Source: Eledone cirrhosa (lineage: Eukaryota). From it: a DNA stretch of 64,000 nucleotides. The first letter of the stretch is position 1, and each line of letters starts with the position of its first letter. Where the stretch lies: positions 216,318,001-216,382,000 of the forward strand of contig OZ024740.1 in assembly GCA_964016885.1 (NCBI GenBank). Reading direction: 5' to 3'. This document shows, in pieces, positions 3,124-51,913 of the stretch. The translations under genes were made by a program, and so were the position numbers. Under the pieces are notes generated by a model. That model was not told the DNA's origin, did not search any database, and was given only the letters and a program-made list of their open reading frames with translations.

Positions 3124-3466
3124 TGGAGGCACATGGCTTAGTGGTTAGAGCATTGGCCTTGCAATCGAAAGGTTGTGAGTTCAATTCTCAGACTGGGTGA
3201 TGTGTTGTTTCCTTGAGCAAGACACTTTATTTCACATTGCTCCAGTTTACTCAGCTGTAGAAATGAGGTGATAGGGACTGGGGTCCATATCATTCCACTG
3301 TAGAGTGGTCGTGGAGGTGCCACGGCAAAAAAGCACCCAGCACTCACTGTAAATGAGGTTGGTGTTAGGAAGGGCATCCAGCTGGAGAAATCAAGCCAGC
3401 ATCAGTTCCCGTCCCACCCTTGCAAGCAGGGAAAAAGTGGACGTAAAATGAAATGATGATGATGAT
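3124..3466 (+). mobile_element. tRNA-derived SINE family A (CORE-like body, RTE-derived 3' tail)
   Basis: A box TGGCTTAGTGG, B box GAGTTCAATTC, body TCCTTGAGCAAGACACTT, tail GGTTGGTGTTAGGAAGGGCATCCAGCTG...GGACGTAAAATGA then (TGA)n. Several near-identical copies occur in the window. Confidence 0.9.
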
Positions 3467-3894: not shown

Positions 3895-6800
3895 TTAGGT
3901 AAGGCGGGTCTTCTCTGTTACTGAGTACCGCCAAAGGTCTCGGTCCAGTGACATTGTCTTGGAGAGGTGTAAGTGTGTGATGTCGGAGTTTATCAGCTCG
4001 TCCCAGGTTTTTCTAGGTCTGCCTATTCCGTGACTACCGTCTATCTTTATTGCCCTGCACTTTGTTATACAGCTATCGACTTTCATGCGCATCACGTGTC
4101 CATACCAACGTAGCCTTCTCTCGAGTAAACAACATCTGATCCCTCTTATCTCTAATTTTTTCCTTAGTTCGTTTATGCTTTGCCGTTCACGTATATTACA
4201 GTTACACATCCAGCGGAGCATGCAAGCTTCGTTCCTCTCTAGTCTGCGTATATCCTCTGCACACAATGCCCAGGTCTCACTGCCATGCAGCATTGCTGTT
4301 CGTATGCAGGCATCGTACAACCTGCCTTTCATTTTTAGTGAGAACCCTTTAGCAGCTAATAGTGGTATAAGCTCTCTGAACTTTTTCCAACCAGTTCTGA
4401 CTCTAGCTACAGTACTTTCAGAGCACCCTCCCCCACTGCTGATTTTATCGCCCAGGTAACGGAAGCTGTCCACTATTTCTATAGAACCCTCTGCGCAATT
4501 GAAAGAGCTAGTAGTTTGTGGGCACTTGCTGCTACTTATTGCACCAGAGCACCGGCCACATGTAAAATCTATGTTCTTAGTTAGCTTACCTGTGATCCCA
4601 CTACATCTTTTATGCACCCATACTTTGCATTTAGGACATAAAATGGAGTTTCTACCTACGCCTTTCCTACACACCGAGCACGACCATTTCCCAGAAGGGA
4701 CCGCCGCCTTGTTTTCTTTCCTACAAACTAGTACTTTGGTCTTAGCCAGGTTAATTTTAAGTCCTTTTGACTCTAGGCCGTGCTTCCATGTTTGGAATTT
4801 CTTCTCTAGCTCGGCCATTGATTCCGCTATGAGTGTCAGGTCGTCTGCGTATAGGAGTTCCCATGGGCAGCCTGTCTTGAACTCCTCTGTTATAGCCTGA
4901 AGGGCAATAATAAATAGTAGTGGGCTGAGAACAGAGCCCTGATGGACGCCAACTTTTACGCTAAACTCTTCACTATATTCGTTGTTAATTCTAACCTTGC
5001 TGACTGTTTCTTTATACATGGCTTGTATAGCCCTCACAAGCCATTCGTCAACGCCTAGTTTTCTAAGAGCCCACCAGATAATGGAGCGGGGGACTCTGTC
5101 GAAGGCTTTCTCCAAGTCGACAAAAGCTAAGTAGAGGGGTTTACCTTTAGCTAGGTACTTCTCCTGTAGTTGTCGTACTATGAAAAGAGCGTCTGTGGTA
5201 CTTTTGCCTGACACAAACCCGAACTGCATTTCATCTAGGTCAATTCTCTCTCTGATTAGTTGCGCTATTACTTTTTCCGTGACCTTCATGACCTGGTCGA
5301 TTAATTTAATGCCTCTATAGTTACTCCTATCTAGGGCGTCTCCTTTACCCTTATAACAGTTAACGATGATGCTGCTATGCCAGTCCTTCGGAACAACCCC
5401 ATTCTGTACGACTTGGTTAACTATGCGGGTGACCATGGTGTGTCCCACCGTGCCAGATGCCTTCAGCATCTCAGCAACTATTTCCGAAGGCCCAGCCGCT
5501 TTACCCGTCTTCATATCCTTGATTGCCTTACTTATTATACTCCCCTCGACTAACACTGCTGGTCCCTCTATTGGGTCGATATGGGGGAGACTGCCTTTCT
5601 CCCAATTATTCTCCTCATTTAGTAGCCTTTCATAGTGACACTTCCAAGCTACCTTCTTATCAGCGTCGGTGATGGCAAGTGTGCCATCGTCGTTTACTAC
5701 ACACTTCTCCCCGACAATATCACGGTTTTCCTTGACGCATTGCCTAGCAATCCTGAACACCTCACGTTTTTGGTCATCGCGTTGTAGAACATGCTTGAAC
5801 TTTCTTTCCTCAGCTTCCCTTCTTGCTAAGTACACTTGTCTCCTAGCTTCCCTCCTGGCCACTTGATAGTCCTCTCTACTTCCCCCATCCCGCCATACTT
5901 TCCAAGCCTGCTTTTTGGCCTTAATTGACCCCTCCACCTTACTGTTCCACCACCATGTTACTCTCCTCCTGCCTACAGGCCTGCTCCAGCCACAGACTTC
6001 GTCTGTCGCCAACAGCAGCTTTGCTTTCAGAAATTCCCACTCTCCCTCTATATTGTCCGACTCTAAATGTTCTTCCTTACTGTCGAAAGCATCAAGTAAT
6101 ATGCTTTGAAATTTATTCCTGGCTGTGGGGTCCTTTAGCTTCCATATTTTCCTCCTGAGGATAGTCCTCTTCTGTTGTCGAGTACGTCTCGTCCTGACTA
6201 TGAGGTCGCTAATTATCAGTCTATGTTGGGAGGTGCATTCTTCATGGGGGAGGGATTTAGTGTTTACAACAGACACTCTGTCACGTCTTCTGGTAAGGAT
6301 ATAATCTACCTGGCTTGTGTGTTCCCCGGATCTATAGGTGATCAGGTGATTGTCACGTTTTTTGAAGTTAGTGTTACAGATAGTTAGGTTATTTGCATCA
6401 CAGAATTCCAGGATTCTGGAGCCTTCCTCATTTCTAGTACCAAACCCATAGCCTCCATGGATTTCGTCGTAGCCGTCACAATGTTGTCCAACGTGACCAT
6501 TTAGGTCGCCTGCGATAATTATATAGTCACTGTCGGATATTTGGGAGGTAGTTAGCATCAGTGTCTCATAGAATCTGTCTTTTATAGTGCCGGGCAGTCC
6601 CGATTGGGGTGCGTACGCAGATATTACTGTCACCGTAGTTCTATTGAGGACAAGTCGTATTTTAATTATTCTGTCGTTCACTCTATTTACGTCTATTATC
6701 TTATCTGCCCACTTTTCTGCTACCATGATTCCTACTCCACCCAGCCCATCGTCGTTTCCCACCCAGAAAAGCTTATAACATCGTTTTTTACCCTCAATGA

Positions 6801-7065
6801 ACCTAGCAGACCCACCCCTCCACCTGGTCTCTTGAATACAACAAACATCGACCTCCTTACGTTCAAGCATTTCTACAACCTCGTTAGCGCGACCCTTTAG
6901 GGTGCCTACATTTATGGTACCAACTCTGAAGTTTTTGATTGCGTTTGGGGGTTGGGGGCGGTGGGGGGCGGGGGGCGATGGGGTTATGTTAGCCGTCCGC
7001 GGTCGAAACAATGAGGAGTGCTCGCATTCTCGTCCAAGAGGTGAATTTGTCTTTATCTTTGGCAT
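3895..7065 (-). CDS. RTE LINE polyprotein: apurinic-like endonuclease + reverse transcriptase with internal PHD finger (1056 aa)
   Basis: APE motifs GTINVGTL, CIQETRW, SAYAPQ, GDLNGHVG, QVDYIL, SQHR. RT motifs QFGF, AFVDLEKAFDRV, GVHQGSVLSPLLF, LLYADD, FRYLG. RTE-type C-terminus AMLHGSETW...RRLRWYGHVMR..GRPRKTW. No internal stops. Confidence 0.96.
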   Translation of the reverse strand: MPKIKTNSPLGRECEHSSLFRPRTANITPSPPAPHRPQPPNAIKNFRVGTINVGTLKGRANEVVEMLERKEVDVCCIQETRWRGGSARFIEGKKRCYKLFWVGNDDGLGGVGIMVAEKWADKIIDVNRVNDRIIKIRLVLNRTTVTVISAYAPQSGLPGTIKDRFYETLMLTTSQISDSDYIIIAGDLNGHVGQHCDGYDEIHGGYGFGTRNEEGSRILEFCDANNLTICNTNFKKRDNHLITYRSGEHTSQVDYILTRRRDRVSVVNTKSLPHEECTSQHRLIISDLIVRTRRTRQQKRTILRRKIWKLKDPTARNKFQSILLDAFDSKEEHLESDNIEGEWEFLKAKLLLATDEVCGWSRPVGRRRVTWWWNSKVEGSIKAKKQAWKVWRDGGSREDYQVARREARRQVYLARREAEERKFKHVLQRDDQKREVFRIARQCVKENRDIVGEKCVVNDDGTLAITDADKKVAWKCHYERLLNEENNWEKGSLPHIDPIEGPAVLVEGSIISKAIKDMKTGKAAGPSEIVAEMLKASGTVGHTMVTRIVNQVVQNGVVPKDWHSSIIVNCYKGKGDALDRSNYRGIKLIDQVMKVTEKVIAQLIRERIDLDEMQFGFVSGKSTTDALFIVRQLQEKYLAKGKPLYLAFVDLEKAFDRVPRSIIWWALRKLGVDEWLVRAIQAMYKETVSKVRINNEYSEEFSVKVGVHQGSVLSPLLFIIALQAITEEFKTGCPWELLYADDLTLIAESMAELEKKFQTWKHGLESKGLKINLAKTKVLVCRKENKAAVPSGKWSCSVCRKGVGRNSILCPKCKVWVHKRCSGITGKLTKNIDFTCGRCSGAISSSKCPQTTSSFNCAEGSIEIVDSFRYLGDKISSGGGCSESTVARVRTGWKKFRELIPLLAAKGFSLKMKGRLYDACIRTAMLHGSETWALCAEDIRRLERNEACMLRWMCNCNIRERQSINELRKKLEIRGIRCCLLERRLRWYGHVMRMKVDSCITKCRAIKIDGSHGIGRPRKTWDELINSDITHLHLSKTMSLDRDLWRYSVTEKTRLT
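4549..4680 (-). other. PHD-type zinc finger (C4HC3) coded within the RT region
   Basis: CSVC-x10-CPKC-x4-H-x2-C-x14-CGRC (aa ~796-839), with the PHD-typical W two residues before the His. Confidence 0.85.
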
Positions 7066-7169
7066 TGTCGCTGAGCGTCCAGATTTTTCTCTCTCTCACC
7101 TCCACTCTCCAGGATTCCGCAGTCCATCCATCCATCATATATCGAAAGGCAACCAGGCAAGCGATAGTA

Positions 7170-7869: not shown

Positions 7870-8036
7870 CGAAGGGAGTGTGGTAAGAAACCAGATGGAC
7901 CATAATGCACCAGAGTACTCGATACTTAGGGTAGTAGAGTGGGTAATAGGAAAAGAGTCAGGACCCCGAAAGCTGAGCTCTGGCCGTTTTCGAAACGGCC
8001 GGAGCTGAGCTGTCGGGGTCCTGACTCTTTTCCTAT
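7868..8036. mobile_element. Penelope-like pseudo-LTR remnant with ~90-bp fold-back palindrome (7946-8036) and 3' half of a hammerhead
   Basis: ATAGGAAAAGAGTCAGGACCCCG...CGGGGTCCTGACTCTTTTCCTAT, with centre GGCCGTTTTCGAAACGGCC. GAAAC-GGC..GCT-GTC resembles stem III. The tail resembles 51843-51920. Confidence 0.55.
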
Positions 8037-8094
8037 ATATATATATATCACATAAGAAACGGAGAATCAGTGTTGTGACGAGTAAAATTTATTA

Positions 8095-8189
8095 GACATA
8101 TTACAATCATTTCTCTGGCGACCAGATCGAGGTACGATCGATGTAATGAGCGAACCTGACTCTGAAATCGCAAGGTCCTCAGATACGTC
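8095..8189 (-). ncRNA. Type I hammerhead ribozyme motif with long stem II (Penelope-like LTR)
   Basis: Minus strand reads GACGUAU-CUGAGGA-C CUUGCGA..(~45 nt)..UCGCCAG A-GAAA UGAUUG UA/AUAUGUC, then AAUAAA. Stem I is 7 bp, and stem III looks like CpG-decayed GAAACGAUCGUA. Confidence 0.7.
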
Positions 8190-8253
8190 TCAATTCTACG
8201 AAGCAGAGTTTCCAGTATATATACATATATATATATATACACATATATATATA

Positions 8254-20317: not shown

Positions 20318-21718
20318 TCATCATCATCATCATCATCGTTTAACATCCATCTTCCACGCTAGCATGGGTTTGGACGGGAGTTTTCCCACTTGAGGCAAGA
20401 TTGGTTGTCCTGCTCGTATAGGACTGTCTGGCAGGTTTTCTATGGCTGGATGCCCTTCCTAACACCAACCACGTTTACAGTGTGGACTGGGAGATTTTTA
20501 CAATGTTACCTACACGGCCACATTACAGCATGGACTGTGTGTTTTTTTGTCGTGACACCTACACGTCTGGCGGGTTTTCTACGGCTGGGTGCCCTTCCCA
20601 ACACCAACCACACGTTTACAGTGTGGACTGGGAGGTTTTTACCGTGTTACCTTCATGGCCACATTACAGCGTGGACTGTGTGTTTTTTTGTCGTGACACC
20701 TACACGACCTCATTTGTTTCGGACTGGATGTTGTGGTACCAACATAACTTCCCATTTAAGGGGGTGGTGTGGATGGGGTGGGGGTAGTAGGACGGGGGTG
20801 TATTTTGTTAGAGGTGCCTACTGACTGTAGGTTTCGCTTTGTACTTAGGCAAGGCGGGTCTTCTGTATAACTGTGTAGCACCAAAGATCTCGGTCCAGTG
20901 ACATTGTCTTGGAGAGGTGTAAGTGTGTGAGGTCGGAATTTATCAAGTCGTCCCAGGTTTTTCTGGGTCTGCCTACTCCGTGGCTACCGTCTATTTTTAT
21001 CGCCCTGCACTTTTTATACAGCTGTCGTCTTTCATGAACATCACGTGACCCTACCAACGTAGTCTTCTCTCGAGTAAACAACATCTGATCCCTCTTATTC
21101 CTAATTTCTCCCTTAGTCCGTTTATGCTTTGCCGTTCACGTATATTACTATTACACATCCAGCGGAGCATGCAAGCTTCGTTCCTCTCCAGTCTGCGTAT
21201 ATCCTCTGCACACAATGCCCAAGTCTCACTGCCATGTAACATTGCTGTTCGTATGCAGGCATCATACAGCCTGCCTTTCATTTTTAGAGAGAACACTTTA
21301 GCGGCCAATAGTGGTATAAGCTCTCTGAACTTTTTCCATCCCGTTCTGACTCTAGCTACTGTACTTTCAGAGCACCCTCCCCCAATGCTGATTTTATCAC
21401 CCAGGTAACGGAAGCTGTCCACTATTTCTATAGAACCATCTGTGCAATGGAATGAGCTAGTATTCTGTGGGCACTTGCTGCTACTTGTTGCACCTGAGCA
21501 CTGGCCACATATAAAATCTATATTCTTAGTTAGCTTACCTGTGATCCCACTACATCTTTTATGCACCCATACTTTGCATTTGGGACATAAAATGGAGTTT
21601 CTGCTGACTCCTTTCCTACACACTGAGCATGGCCATTTCCCAGATGGGACCAGTGCCCTATTTTCCTTCCTACAAACTAGAACTTTAGTCTTAGACAACT
21701 TAACTTTAAGGCCTTTGT
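20318..21718 (-). mobile_element. 5'-truncated, older RTE copy retaining the PHD finger and C-terminus
   Basis: ORFs 21051..21737 and 20845..21084 align with aa ~770-1056 of the intact ORF across a disruption; 3' UTR has an internal duplication and a (TGA)n tail. Confidence 0.92.
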
Positions 21719-22468
21719 CTCTCCTATTCAACATCATGGGTGGTAATAAATCTTTATGTTCTGCGTGAACAGAAATCTCACTTCTTAGCAGTTACACCTG
21801 CATATTTAAAATGAAGGATTGACATCAGGAAGGGCATCCAGCTGTAGAATCTAGCCAGAAGAAGCTTTATCCAACCCAAAAATTTCTGTAAAACTGTAAA
21901 ACTTACTGTGTAATGTAAACATTAAAGTACTAAATATGTGATCACAGTAAACTGTAGAATCTGACATCAGAAATTATAACTCCCAATTTGAGATGGTAGG
22001 AAAGAGAAACAAGCAAGGTTAGATTTAGACCTTGGAAGAGCCTATCACTCACAAAAAATTAGAATACACAATTTTACATATCAAAGTTAGCTTGGTGCAA
22101 GTAATTGGAATTGAAAAGTTATACATACAGGTATTAAATTGAAAAATTCTAACCTTCCTAAAACTAAAAAGCCTAGTTGAGGACAAATAAATTGCTATGT
22201 CTGTTGCTGGTGGGTGCCCCTCAACTGCAGGGGGCCTGCGGCAATTGCCCCCATTAAATATGGCCCTGGAAACAGATCCCTTGAAACAACTTGAACTATG
22301 TATCTACTTCTTATCAGGTAGATGTGTTAACTATTACAGAAGTGACTGGCGTGCTGCCATCTTAAATACTATAAATTGTTTCAGCCATTTCCATAGATAA
22401 TTAATTCCTCAGTTACTTATAAAACACTCATTTATGTGTAATGACTAATATCATTTATATTAAAATTT

Positions 22469-31600: not shown

Positions 31601-32064
31601 GTAAGTTAGTTGGAGGTGGAAGATACTCATTCGGACATCACACATTTACATATACTTCATATGAAAATTGATAGCTTTTACGTGGTTTCTTACCGATGTC
31701 TGGAAGTTGGAAATTTAACCTGAAGGCAGTTCTAATTCTATAATGCAAAGCTTGTTTATTTTAAAGTGTATATAAGAATATTTGTTCAGTTGTGTTCCAA
31801 GCTTTAGCTTAGTTATGATAAAGTTAATTATATTAATATATCTTTTCAAATCTTGGATTATTTAAAAAATGAATTGAAAATCATAGGCAGTTTCTTTCAT
31901 TAGAAATATGGCATTGAAATTGTCAAACAGTTGTAATTTATTTGTGTAAGCTATTAAATTGAAAATAAAACTCTTTAAAATATAAATGTCACAAGGTTAT
32001 ATATATATATATAATGACAGAGTGAAGAATAACATGGTCGGCTGTACAAAAAGGGTTTTATTTA

Positions 32065-32179
32065 CAGTATTAACAATTGTTTCATTGATCAGGTGAGTCT
32101 AAAGACCGCTAATCACTCGAAATTGCGCCACTTGACCTTAAATACAGTGTGTGTCTCTAATCAAATCATCGGAATACAG
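32065..32179 (-). ncRNA. Mirror hammerhead copy with core variant CCGAUGA (probably inactive)
   Basis: Reverse-complement arm of the palindrome; U4 is changed to C. Confidence 0.55.
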
Positions 32180-32291
32180 TATTCTGATGATTTGATCAGA
32201 GACTCACACTATATTTAAGGTCAAGTGGCGCAATTTCGTTTGATCAGCGGCCTTTAGACGCACCTGATCAATGAAACAATTGTTAATACTG
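32177..32291 (+). ncRNA. Type I hammerhead ribozyme motif with extended stem II
   Basis: CAGUAUU-CUGAUGA-U UUGAUCAG..(~64 nt)..CUGAUCAA U-GAAAC AAUU GUU/AAUACUG. It has a perfect 7-bp stem I, an 8-bp stem II base and a palindromic stem III, with AAUAAA just downstream. Confidence 0.8.
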
Positions 32292-32513
32292 AAAATAAAA
32301 CGCTTTTTGTACAGCCGACCATGTTATGTTATTCTTCACTCTTTCACTATTATTACTCCAAGAATAACCTACAAGGAAATTCTCGTAAACTCGCTACCTA
32401 ACTATGGAAACCTCTTGTTGAGTCAAACAACGCCATACGTTAAAACTATCCATAGTACAGAGTACTCACAACCTCTAACTAGATTACCTAAAACGATAAC
32501 TTGTTATCCCATA

Positions 32514-32545
<32 letters not shown>

Positions 32546-34171: not shown

Positions 34172-35525
34172 TTAAACCTTTAGCATTTACATTACTCTAT
34201 ATTTACTATTGTATTTTCAAAATAAACACTTTATTTCACATAATATCAAATCTATGAGATTTTGGTAATATCTATTTTGAGAACAATATCTTAACATAAG
34301 TATGAGCAGCCAGTTACAGCTGGTTTGAACAGAAAGAGGTGAGAGAATTCTGGCCAGATATCTTTAATATCTTCATTCTCAGCCGAAAAGAGGTAGTCAC
34401 GGTTCTAGGACAGCATTCTTTACCATATGAGATGTCATCTGGTGTACCACAGGGATCAGTTCTTGGTCCCCTTTTCGTTGTGGCATATATTAATGACATA
34501 GATGCCAACTTAAAGAATGCCACGGTACTGAAATATGCAGATGACATCAAGCTGTACCTTGAAATCAAAAGGACTGATCCTGAAATCTACAACTCTTTCC
34601 TACAATCAGACCTGGACACAATGCAGCAATGGATCACAGACTGGCAACTGAAGCTAGCTGTGGACAAGTGTACCACTATCCATTTTGAGAGGAAAAATCC
34701 AGCGTCCACATACTCCCTCCACAACACTGATATCGAGAAGTCCTCTTGTGAACGTGACCTGGGCATTACTGTCAGCAGCGATTTGCGTTGGACAAAGCAT
34801 GTCTCTAAGATTGTCAAGAAAGCCGTGGGTGTCTTGGCATCACTCAGCAAGACCTTTGTTAGCCGCTCTCCAGCCATCTATTTTAAGCTGAATACAGCTA
34901 TGGTACGACCACACTTGGAATTCGCATCATCAGTCTGGAACCCCTATCTTGCTCAGAACATTAACCTCCTGGAAACTGTTCAGAGACGTGCAACCAAGCG
35001 CATACCCTCCATCAGACACCTACCATACTCTGAATGCCTTGCTTCCCTGGGCATGGATTCATTGAAGCTCCGACGTCTGGCAATGGACTTGGTAAACACC
35101 CACAAAATTGTTAACCATCTCGCCAACAACAACCCTGAGCACCTTTTTGATCTCCATGTGTCTAACACACGTGGACATGCCTACAAAATCAGAAAATAGC
35201 ACTGCTCCCATGACTTTCGTAGACATCTTTTCACGCTCAGAGTTGCTGAAGCATGGAACAAACTGCCTGCGTCAGTTGTTAGCTGCATCCTTTAAAACCC
35301 TCATGCTTCCTGAAATTCGCCAAAACTACACCTGATGTCCCCCTTCCATACACATGCACACATGTGTATATCATGACTCATGCACTGTTCATTTTCCTGA
35401 CATTTGTACATTACCCTATGTACTATACATACACTTTTTGATGAGTTGTAGTGCACCTGAGCACTGTACACAATATTTCATTATTATTATTATATATATA
35501 ACTGGTTTAAATGCTAAAGGGTTAA
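34172..35525. mobile_element. piggyBac-like MITE family 1 split by a LINE insertion
   Basis: Left part 34172-34361 and right part ~35497-35525 rejoin to give the family sequence ...TGGCCGGATATGGCTGGTTTAAATGCTAAAGGGTTAA. Confidence 0.85.
34362..35496 (+). mobile_element. 5'-truncated CR1-like LINE (RT C-terminal half, 3' UTR, (TAT)n tail)
   Basis: SGVPQGSVLGP, KYADDIKLY, ERDLGI, VRPHLEFASSVWNPY, LETVQRRATK, TRGH. The premature TAG at 35197 is followed by RVAEAWNKLPASVV. Confidence 0.92.
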
Positions 35526-38212: not shown

Positions 38213-38560
38213 TCATCATCATCATCATCATCATCATTTTATGTCCACTTTTCCCTGCTTGCAAGGGTGGGACGGGAACTGATTCTGGCTTGATTTCTCC
38301 AGCTGGATGCCCTTCCTAACACCAACCTCATTTACAGTGAGTGCTGGGTGCTTTTTTGCCGTGACACCTCCACGACCACGTTGCAGTGGAATGATTTGGA
38401 CCCCAGTCCCTATCATCTCATTTCTACAGCTGAGTAAACTGGAGCAATGTGAAATAAAGTGTCTTGCTCAAGGAAACAACACATCACCCGGTCTGAGAAT
38501 TGAACTCACAACCTTTCGATTGCAAGGCCAATGCTCTAACCACTAAGCCATGTGCCTCCA
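38213..38560 (-). mobile_element. SINE family A, full length
   Basis: Reverse complement of 3124-3466. Confidence 0.92.
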
Positions 38561-38569
38561 TATATATAT

Positions 38570-38680
38570 GTATATATTATTAGCAAAATTTAAAAATTTA
38601 AACAATTTCTGCTTTTACCCTCGGGTGAAAGCAGAAATTGATAGCTTCAACTTTTAATGTGCTACTAATAAATATATAGA
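38570..38680. repeat. Short fold-back palindrome with hammerhead-like 3' half
   Basis: CAATTTCTGCTTTTACCC-TC-GGGTGAAAGCAGAAATTG; GAAAGC...GCTT then AATAAA. Confidence 0.55.
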
Positions 38681-38683
38681 TAT

Positions 38684-39022
38684 ACATGGCTTAGTGGTTA
38701 GAGCGTTGGCCTTGCAATCGAAAGGTTGTGAGTTCAATTCTCAGACCGGGTGATGCGTTGTTTCCTTAAGCAAGACACTTTATTTCACATTGCTCCAGTT
38801 TACTCAGCTGTAGAAATGAGATGATAGGAACTGGAGTCTCTATCATTCAACTGCAAAGTGGTCGTGGAGGTGCCACGGAAAAAAAGCACCCAGCACTCAC
38901 TGTAAATGAGGTTGGTGTTAGAAAGGGCATCCAGCTGTAGAAATCAAGCCAGAATCAGTTCCCGTCCCACCCTTGCAAGCAGGGAAAAAGCAGACGTAAA
39001 ATGAAATGATGATGATGATGAT
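38684..39022 (+). mobile_element. SINE family A
   Basis: Matches 3124-3466. Confidence 0.92.
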
Positions 39023-41709: not shown

Positions 41710-42100
41710 TGGAGCCACATGGCTTAGTGGTGAGAGCATTGGGCTTGCAATCGAAAGGTTGTGAGTTCAATTCTCAGACTGGGTGATGTGTTGTTTCCTT
41801 GAGCAAGACACTTTATTTCACATAGCTCCAGTTTACTAAGCTGTAGAAATGAGATGATAGGACTGGGGTCCATATCATTCCACTGCAAAGTGGTCGTGGA
41901 GGTGCCACAGCAAAAAAGCACCCAGCCCACACTGTAAAGTGGACATATAGGTGCCACGGAAAAAAAAGCACCCAGCACTCACTGTAAATGAGGTTGGTGT
42001 TAGGAAGGGCATCCAGCTGTAGAAATCAAGCTAGAATCAGTTCCTGTCCCACCCTTGCAAGCAGGGAAAAGCGGACGTAAAAGGATGATGATGATGATGG
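41710..42100 (+). mobile_element. SINE family A with an extra ~48-bp internal repeat unit
   Basis: Matches 3124-3466 plus a duplicated AAAAAGCACCCAGC..CACTGTAAA unit. Confidence 0.9.
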
Positions 42101-51687: not shown

Positions 51688-51690
<3 letters not shown>

Positions 51691-51913
51691 GTAGTAACAC
51701 AACAGTTAGTTCACACCATACCGAGAACAATTGTTTCACCTTAGCAGATCTTCAGCTCGAACTGGTCATGGTTATACTTTTCTGTTCCGTATAACCATGA
51801 CCAGTCCGAGCTGAAGATCTGCTATGGTGAAGTAACTGTTGTGTTACCACTTCTACCAAACTCGTCCCATGGACTGAGTGCTCTACCACTACGGATATTA
51901 CCATCCAGTGTTT

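Follow-up and report, generated by a model that had tools for sequence, protein, structure and literature searches.

A palindrome of about 335 bp beside a (TA)n tract, with a hammerhead ribozyme motif on each strand, raises the question of whether it belongs to an undescribed system of ORF-less ribozyme retroelements, as an earlier note on this DNA had proposed, or to the end of a kind of element that is already known. The window, i.e. the whole stretch of DNA that was analysed, covers 64 kb of the genome of Eledone cirrhosa. The reading preferred here, to which we give a probability of roughly 0.88, is that the palindrome consists of the head-to-head terminal repeats of a 5'-truncated Penelope-like element (PLE) with Hydra motifs, left by a single integration of two cDNAs into (TA)n.

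The palindrome itself is as announced: its arms (32029-32177 and 32179-32327) show 93% complementarity over 149 nt and can be aligned outward to about 32014 and 32349. A descriptor scan recovers the expected type I hammerhead of the + arm at 32177-32291 and, run on the whole window, its mirror with CCGAUGA on the - arm. The end that had been assigned to the element, at 32349, has to be moved, as the + arm continues for 160 bp to 32510 and is then followed by (TA)n. The insertion exceeds the palindrome, and (TA)n adjoins both of its ends. With respect to the CUGANGA/GAAA core and the NUH cleavage site, the + arm is canonical; the - arm carries the change U4C and has a stem I of 5 bp. In the + arm hammerhead, a U.U junction pair lies between the core and stem II, and the core-to-GAAA spacing is 82 nt. 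The features of the insertion, in positions of the window, are the following.

31998..32013, no strand: (TA)8, the left-hand side of the microsatellite that served as target (family copies have (TA)n at their ends)
32014..32177, - strand: inverted pLTR copy without tail, extending between the likely RNA start (+3) and the short 3' end
32065..32177, - strand: type I hammerhead motif of the inverted arm, predicted to misfold
32172-32166, - strand: core CCGAUGA (U4C) of the inverted arm
between 32072 and 32071, - strand: predicted cut in the inverted arm
32177..32350, + strand: direct pLTR copy, extending between the likely RNA start (+1) and the short 3' end
32177..32291, + strand: type I hammerhead motif of the direct arm, with palindromic stem III
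32177-83/32285-91, + strand: stem I (7 bp)
32184-90, + strand: core CUGAUGA
32192-99/32264-71, + strand: stem II (8 bp), around 64 nt
32200..32263, + strand: 64-nt insert closed by stem II
32211..32257, + strand: candidate 47-nt GT..AG segment framing the inner hairpin, a putative intron
32217..32254, + strand: inner hairpin of the insert (32217-30 with 32241-54), four pairs of which are compensatory between subfamilies
32239..32247, + strand: second UUUGAUCAG, created by two substitutions (32239-40) seldom seen in the family
32273-84, + strand: GAAACAAUUGUU, predicted cut after 32284
32294..32299, + strand: AAUAAA, likely poly(A) signal (column conservation 0.99 in a 26-copy alignment)
32351..32510, + strand: 160-bp 'tail', corresponding to the 5' UTR, which in long elements runs as far as where the ORF begins, about 55 nt further
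32511..32531, no strand: (AT)n, right part of the target microsatellite

A 28-mer taken from the 3' part of the repeat has 520 exact matches genome-wide (control, 0), and a DNA search with the repeat gave 1,894 first-look candidates, 40 of which were scored. Many of the best-scoring copies extend upstream into common sequence. At one locus (L031), the order is RT, linker, GIY-YIG and about 700 bp of 3' UTR, followed by a window-type repeat at 90% identity. A search with a piece of the L031 ORF returned 29,783 candidates; among 150 listed, 20 loci, including two near-duplicates, were picked for their long open frames, and the repeat lies downstream of the ORF, in sense, at 19 of these 20 (partial at one). 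Direct pLTRs flank the ORF, 3.3-3.4 kb apart, at L068, L069 and L081, and the 160-bp tail seen in the window continues through the 5' UTR into the ORF at L068, L069, L080 and L081. Genome-wide, 50 such tail-to-ORF continuations were counted, at least 10 of them being duplicates within one segmental array. No intact family ORF was found among the loci read, and most family copies are short and ORF-less.

Since the repeat ends ORF-bearing elements of Hydra type, the proposal of an ORF-less ribozyme retroelement does not hold, nor does that of an undescribed system: the element and its layout of hammerheads on opposite strands are of already published kinds, and the double hammerhead is ordinary Penelope biology. 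Linkage to RT/GIY-YIG ORFs had been put forward as a check, novelty being expected to drop if all homologues were LTRs of an annotated Penelope family. The linkage exists, and most of what would lower the novelty is the case; the family is, nonetheless, not the published Hydra-1_Obim, which its ORF N-terminus resembles and from which both this N-terminus and the hammerhead differ in a comparison by eye. In the assembly (G000), family copies at about 100-kb and about 22-kb spacing occur at 217.31-217.62 Mb of contig C1 and 313.52-313.75 Mb of contig C2, a pattern indicative of segmental tandem duplication, through which copy numbers are overestimated.

The protein motifs of the ORF allow the family to be placed. 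The N-terminal RT region contains RWK and DKT at L069, L080 and L081, QWK and DKT at L068, and DKT at L065. The L065 ORF and L031/L033 show a CxCX5C linker, and CxxC and CxH around conserved E and N; a CCHH between GIY and YIG is absent from the ORF, in which GIY-YIG is C-terminal. RWK, DKT, CxCX5C, CxxC/CxH, the lack of CCHH and a (TA)n target are features of the Hydra clade (PMC8557442), and insertion into (TA)n of the Hydra type is seen both for the window insertion and for family copies. Hydra elements tend to be smaller than 3 kb according to the same source, a tendency rather than a rule that the unit found here exceeds. The sense ORF with RT and C-terminal GIY-YIG, the inverted 5'-truncated copies and the optional tail are, furthermore, those of EN+ PLEs. 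By its protein motifs, the family would therefore be a Hydra-clade PLE, a new Penelope family of this type, and the window repeat is made of its terminal repeats.

Other assignments were considered and dropped: Neptune/Nematis, which have a CX2-5CxxC linker with CCHH, Naiad, whose EN is N-terminal, and an origin from a Pol III transcript (SINE), since no clear A or B box was recognised by eye. A Pfam search with three pieces of the ORF gave no match above the cut-off; homologues of the ORF carry PF26215. Database proteins match the ORF in 365 cases at E<=1e-10, and the best 120 of these 365 are 31-44% identical to it and mostly unnamed, two being labelled Argonauta, which would fit a cephalopod host. 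More distant PLE ORFs, two Hydra-like and one of another PLE type, lie beside family copies at L034 (657-1994 and 3685-4818) and L065 (5124-5915); PLEs cluster at (TA)n tracts.

The hammerhead motif recurs across the family. The 108 motifs scanned, which include some junction chimeras, comprise 60 with the core CCGAUGA, 20 with CUGAUGA and 3 with CUGAGGA; the U.U at the base of stem II (10.1-11.1) is present in 89 of the 108 and the same 82-nt spacing in 64. The core, GAAAC and the cleavage site are conserved at 0.91-0.96 across subfamilies that are only about 72-90% alike, and A9U occurs in one subfamily. U4C is reported to lower hammerhead activity in vitro and U.U to be the best-tolerated mismatch at 10.1-11.1 (PMC3088659).

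The large-insert stem II that had been proposed is borne out by compensatory changes in an alignment (A1) of 26 copies from several subfamilies. RNAalifold run on A1 recovers the inner hairpin only and misses stems I and II, partly from gaps in stem II; stems I and II were then tested on A1 as a named structure. In this structure, 92.4% of the cells are paired versus 87.6% after shuffling (0/500), slid controls giving 23-47%, and two of the five shuffle measures are not significant (53/500 and 181/500). The stem covariation whose absence was to speak against the motif is present: two pairs of stem I, three of stem II and four of the inner hairpin have changed on both sides. One stem II pair is broken in 6 of the 26 rows and one inner pair in 8. 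Counted on a tree for eight pairs, about 9 compensatory switches fall on 4-5 branches, the sequences being related. Judged from this alignment, the elongated stem II does exist; compensatory changes speak for it as well as for stem I and for the inner hairpin.

Stem III consists of 2 bp and a 4-nt palindromic loop, which is not the stem III of a stable monomer; its 8-mer forms a self-duplex of -6.4 kcal/mol, as in dimer-type PLE hammerheads. The earlier reading of the motif as a Penelope pLTR hammerhead with a palindromic stem III is supported. The operation as dimers that had been mentioned with it does not extend to the window pair: the two ribozymes cannot form a cis dimer because they lie on opposite strands, and an RNA reading through both arms would be one 165-bp hairpin, the 336-nt strand of the palindrome being predicted to fold into a single hairpin of -236 kcal/mol (z -29). 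The separate arms fare no better in prediction. For the two window arms, the probabilities predicted for stem II are 0.00 and 0.01, and the hammerhead fold, forced with an unpaired core, lies 9.0 and 5.6 kcal/mol above the lowest. As both arms are predicted to misfold and read-through RNA to become a hairpin, the window copy is likely dead. In 85 copies of the family, the median probability of stem II is 0.71, and it exceeds 0.5 in 51; the lowest-energy fold of each of four family-typical copies contains the long stem II.

Long-stem-II forms had been suspected of escaping standard searches. Indeed, Rfam reports no hammerhead anywhere in the 64-kb window at E<=1 and so missed those present, and the core search of PMC8557442 used a spacer of 7-17 nt, eight half-cores being noted there at 35-50 nt. 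Hammerheads with a stem II domain, invisible to Rfam and outside a 7-17 nt search, are therefore likely under-counted. Spacers of 26-62 nt occur in numerous further hammerheads of the fetched loci, so that a longer stem II seems to be a widespread tendency in the genome of Eledone cirrhosa.

How the copies end is informative about the formation of the palindrome. Ends were mapped, with alignment ends accurate to a few bases only, on 89 arms; these belong to 85 loci, drawn from the first 100 of the 520 matches after five duplicates had been dropped. There are two fixed 3' ends, 160 nt apart: 58 arms are short and 31 have the tail. At the other end, 27 of the 89 arms start at -1..+8 of the first base of the hammerhead (4.7 expected per 10 nt, p ~1e-14) and 3 near the cut site, 25 extend upstream into the 3' UTR, and 47 adjoin an inverted family piece. 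In several subfamilies, a TATA-like motif is found about 30 nt upstream of +1, which is the usual distance between a TATA box and the start of an RNA. The copy ends would thus map the life cycle of the element in vivo, with a likely RNA start at the first base of the ribozyme and two starts of reverse transcription. As 5' ends pile up at the start of the hammerhead and show no excess at the cut site, the uncleaved RNA is the likely template, a pattern that agrees with an in vitro model in which uncleaved RNA plays this role. In the sequence of the element itself, a TAT lies at the short end and an ATATA at the long one, which makes base-paired priming on nicked (TA)n likely.

Full double palindromes were found in 2 of the 85 sampled loci, and 33 head-to-head double-hammerhead junctions genome-wide (21 of the window type and 12 others). 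The junction loci carry the tail on one arm, on the other or on both, and this speaks for the palindrome having arisen repeatedly and independently. A scheme consistent with these ends would be as follows. The RNA would begin with stem I of the hammerhead, about 30 nt past the TATA motif. (TA)n would be nicked by the RT/GIY-YIG protein, which would then prime reverse transcription within the RNA, at one or the other of two sites that match TA over 3-5 nt. Two cDNAs, one from each priming site, would both reach the 5' end of the RNA and be joined there, giving an inverted short arm and a direct arm with tail; the double-hammerhead palindrome would result whenever both cDNAs run to +1. In active elements, the hammerhead would probably act as a slow ribozyme assisted by a dimer or a protein, its stem II being extended by the structured 64-nt insert into a branched rod. 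Inverted 5'-truncated copies and tails are part of the published anatomy of PLEs (PMC8557442, PMC3846280); palindromes were accounted for in PMC3846280 by self-priming on an antisense template, an alternative route that may also be compatible with the end data.

Two other explanations of the locus as a whole have to be weighed against this one. The palindrome could be the spreading unit of an independent, ORF-less element resembling a retrozyme or a MITE, in keeping with the prevalence of window-type junctions (21 of 33) and with the fact that most copies are short and without ORF. However, the 5' ends grade continuously into the 3' UTR and the ORF, full double palindromes are rare in the sampled loci, the variable position of the tail does not suit a fixed unit, and head-to-tail arrays of short units were not seen in the loci read, except for a partial direct pair at L116; we therefore regard such an element as highly improbable. 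Clustering of the arms of 15 loci gave mixed nearest neighbours, a test weakened by internal deletions. The hammerhead could also be a catalytically dead structure retained as a binding or promoter-proximal element. U4C in most copies, the U.U at 10.1-11.1, the GUU site, A9U in one subfamily and the lack of excess of 5' ends at the cut site (3 of 89 arms) would all accord with this, and cleavage is dispensable in vitro for the anole element (PMC11167929). However, core, GAAAC and site have stayed conserved while the subfamilies diverged, and U.U, besides being well tolerated, is common at this junction in published Hydra hammerheads (PMC8557442, File S2), so that a loss of catalysis throughout the family appears rather doubtful. 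Truncated terminal repeats of a Hydra-type PLE, with a hammerhead conserved in the family and probably inactive in the window copy, remain the preferred reading.

The closest known systems are the elements of the Hydra clade (Craig et al. 2021, PMC8557442; Hydra-1_Obim, Penelope-13_HM), which share the C-terminal GIY-YIG, the linker motifs and (TA)n, as well as a type I hammerhead close to the 3' end, whose stem II is often flanked by an additional U on either side; for Penelope-13_HM, hammerheads on the two strands are listed together with an inverted 5' copy (PMC8557442 supplement). The differences concern loop II, which has 64 nt and an inner covarying hairpin here versus 3-10 nt in the Hydra rows of File S2, and dimensions, with a unit of 3.3-3.4 kb and a tail of 160 nt versus the published <3 kb and 30-40 nt. 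Metazoan PLE hammerheads (Cervera and de la Pena 2014, PMC4209133) likewise have a helix II of 7-8 bp and a small palindromic helix III predicted to be dimer-dependent, and occur mostly in single truncated copies, with some opposite-strand pairs 100-700 bp apart, so that hammerhead pairs on the opposite strands of inverted pLTRs were already published; the part of that account available describes no large loop II insert. A precedent for a long loop II is provided by PLE-X1_sMoe and PLE-X1_sTam from spike mosses, flagged as deviating in File S2 of PMC8557442, whose stem II of 9 bp closes a loop of about 35 nt, the longest of that file. They belong to another clade and another kingdom, their loop has about half the length, and the table reports no inner structure.

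Poseidon PAc of the green anole (Frangieh et al. 2024, PMC11167929) also has two internal RT starts that define a tail, an AT-rich target and uncleaved RNA as the main template. Its starts are not homologous to the cut DNA, whereas those inferred here have a TA match of 3-5 nt; unlike in Poseidon PAc, the two 3' ends are 160 nt apart within the 5' UTR, and the hammerhead is located upstream of the ORF instead of overlapping its start. Non-LTR retrozymes (bioRxiv 10.64898/2026.07.22.740005) resemble the window insertion in being non-coding, related to pLTRs and equipped with a type I hammerhead. However, they are head-to-tail tandem units that each carry a hammerhead, whereas the window insertion is made of head-to-head truncated ends; assignment to the retrozymes was rejected, as the family shows head-to-head or single truncated ends and is linked to an ORF.

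What is new is the covarying 64-nt domain in stem II, which makes the ribozyme a modestly new variant and a natural construct for asking about the function and regulation of PLE hammerheads. A large structured loop II in PLE hammerheads was not found in full-text searches of the literature; Lunse et al. 2017, reportedly dealing with dimers of PLE hammerheads, might list some.

The 64-nt insert is itself open to several interpretations; it likely folds into an additional hairpin, as part of a structured rod. The second UUUGAUCAG had been thought to offer an alternative fold. This fold does exist, as the lowest-energy fold of the window copy, so that the segment could be taken for a conserved conformational switch, all the more as the place of the 8-mer is taken, in 18 copies out of 85, by the 7-nt form UGAUCAG and, in 43 of the 85, by the wobble form GAUUAG, which may create a weak competition between folds in the family. 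However, the full 8-mer occurs in 1 of the 85 full-length copies, the window copy itself; in the family, this stretch forms the 3' side of the inner hairpin, which covaries, and all 4 of the family-typical copies put the long stem II into their lowest-energy fold. Contigs of the same organism (three runs, one sample) mostly have the family letters at 32239-40. Such a switch is thus very unlikely.

The insert could instead be a short retained spliceosomal intron whose splicing would leave a compact loop II and switch on or alter the hammerhead. The corresponding signals are frequent: GT is found on the 5' side in 20 of 26 rows of the insert alignment (the donor G of the candidate segment is A in the window + arm), an alternative GUAAA donor in 10 of 26, and YAG on the 3' side in 24 of 26. 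Furthermore, the unpaired UAGAC after the inner hairpin (32255-59) is conserved at 0.98, like the catalytic core, with 0.89 for GUAUU before it, and a second Hydra-type family has GUAUGU...UACAUAG in a long stem II in 4 of 4 diverged copies. However, a length of 42-56 nt is short for a large animal genome, in which introns are usually longer, the pyrimidine tract would be paired within the inner hairpin, and no branch point is common to all subfamilies. Spliced DNA copies were sought with three junction patterns, which gave 1, 0 and 0 matches, the sole match being an unspliced copy with a 2-nt duplication; this says little, because Penelope elements keep their introns, and retained introns would leave no spliced copy. 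Among the joints listed for contigs of one sample, no 47- or 56-nt GT..AG skip was found. A parallel exists in the Penelope of D. virilis, which retains a 75-bp intron 46 bp past its start, adjoining a hammerhead (PMC2377424). Globally, an intron appears unlikely, and the structured rod is preferred. A pairing of UAUUUA of the insert with the poly(A) signal is possible and was set aside, as it does not covary.

The second Hydra-type family, a young one with copies up to 99% identical (L090:2400-2600 on the - strand, L201-L225 and L248) carries an unrelated stretch of 99-116 nt between core and GAAA, predicted to form a rod (about 105 nt) in stem II. Its 5' end is defined and lies a few bases ahead of stem I; it also forms double-hammerhead palindromes, has at L248 a nearly complete ORF in two pieces, and offers a better test object than the window copy. 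We would only tentatively suggest, as a doubtful possibility, that unrelated inserts (of 64 nt and about 100 nt) have been built at least twice into stem II at the 5' end of the mRNA to gate self-cleavage; if true, a module, either a spliced mini-intron or a protein-binding rod, would decide whether the RNA is cut or used whole as a template.

Further hammerheads had been reported at 8.1, 51.7, 7.9 and 38.6 kb of the window. The first two were recovered, that at 51.7 kb by the descriptor scan of the whole window and that at 8.1 kb by a looser scan; the hairpins at 7955-8035, which recurs in other loci, and 38600-38640 lie beside (TA)n, have no CYGANGA core and are not hammerheads by these scans. 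The motif at 8040-8215 (-) has the core CUGAGGA and a 62-nt spacer that holds a B-box-like GGUUCGAUC; its repeat gave 2,444 first-look candidates and resembles a PLE end by its short and tailed ends, inverted pairs and (TA)n, and no ORF linked to it was found within 1.5 kb in 25 loci. At 51690-51890, there is a second head-to-head palindrome (2,539 first-look candidates), partly deleted in its + arm, with a hammerhead of short stem II, the core CUGAAGA, an 11-nt spacer and the same GAAACAAUUGUU; a linked ORF was not seen in 20 loci. L082:5609-6320 contains three neighbouring hammerheads, two on the - strand and one on the + strand, with a 50-nt spacer and GAAACUAAUUAGUU, which have relatives in L040 and L066 and are possibly retrozyme-like.

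The window also includes an uninterrupted ORF of 1066 aa at 3895-7095 (-), with a fragment at 21051-21791, which resembles an RTE-type LINE in its endonuclease, RT and Cys-rich finger, and a 297-aa RT fragment at 34306-35199 (+), presumably of a CR1/L2-type LINE. Weak Rfam tRNA matches at 3132-3195, 38493-38550, 38687-38744 and 41718-41781 are likely heads of tRNA-derived SINEs, the tRNA-like pair at 38.5-38.7 kb being itself inverted.
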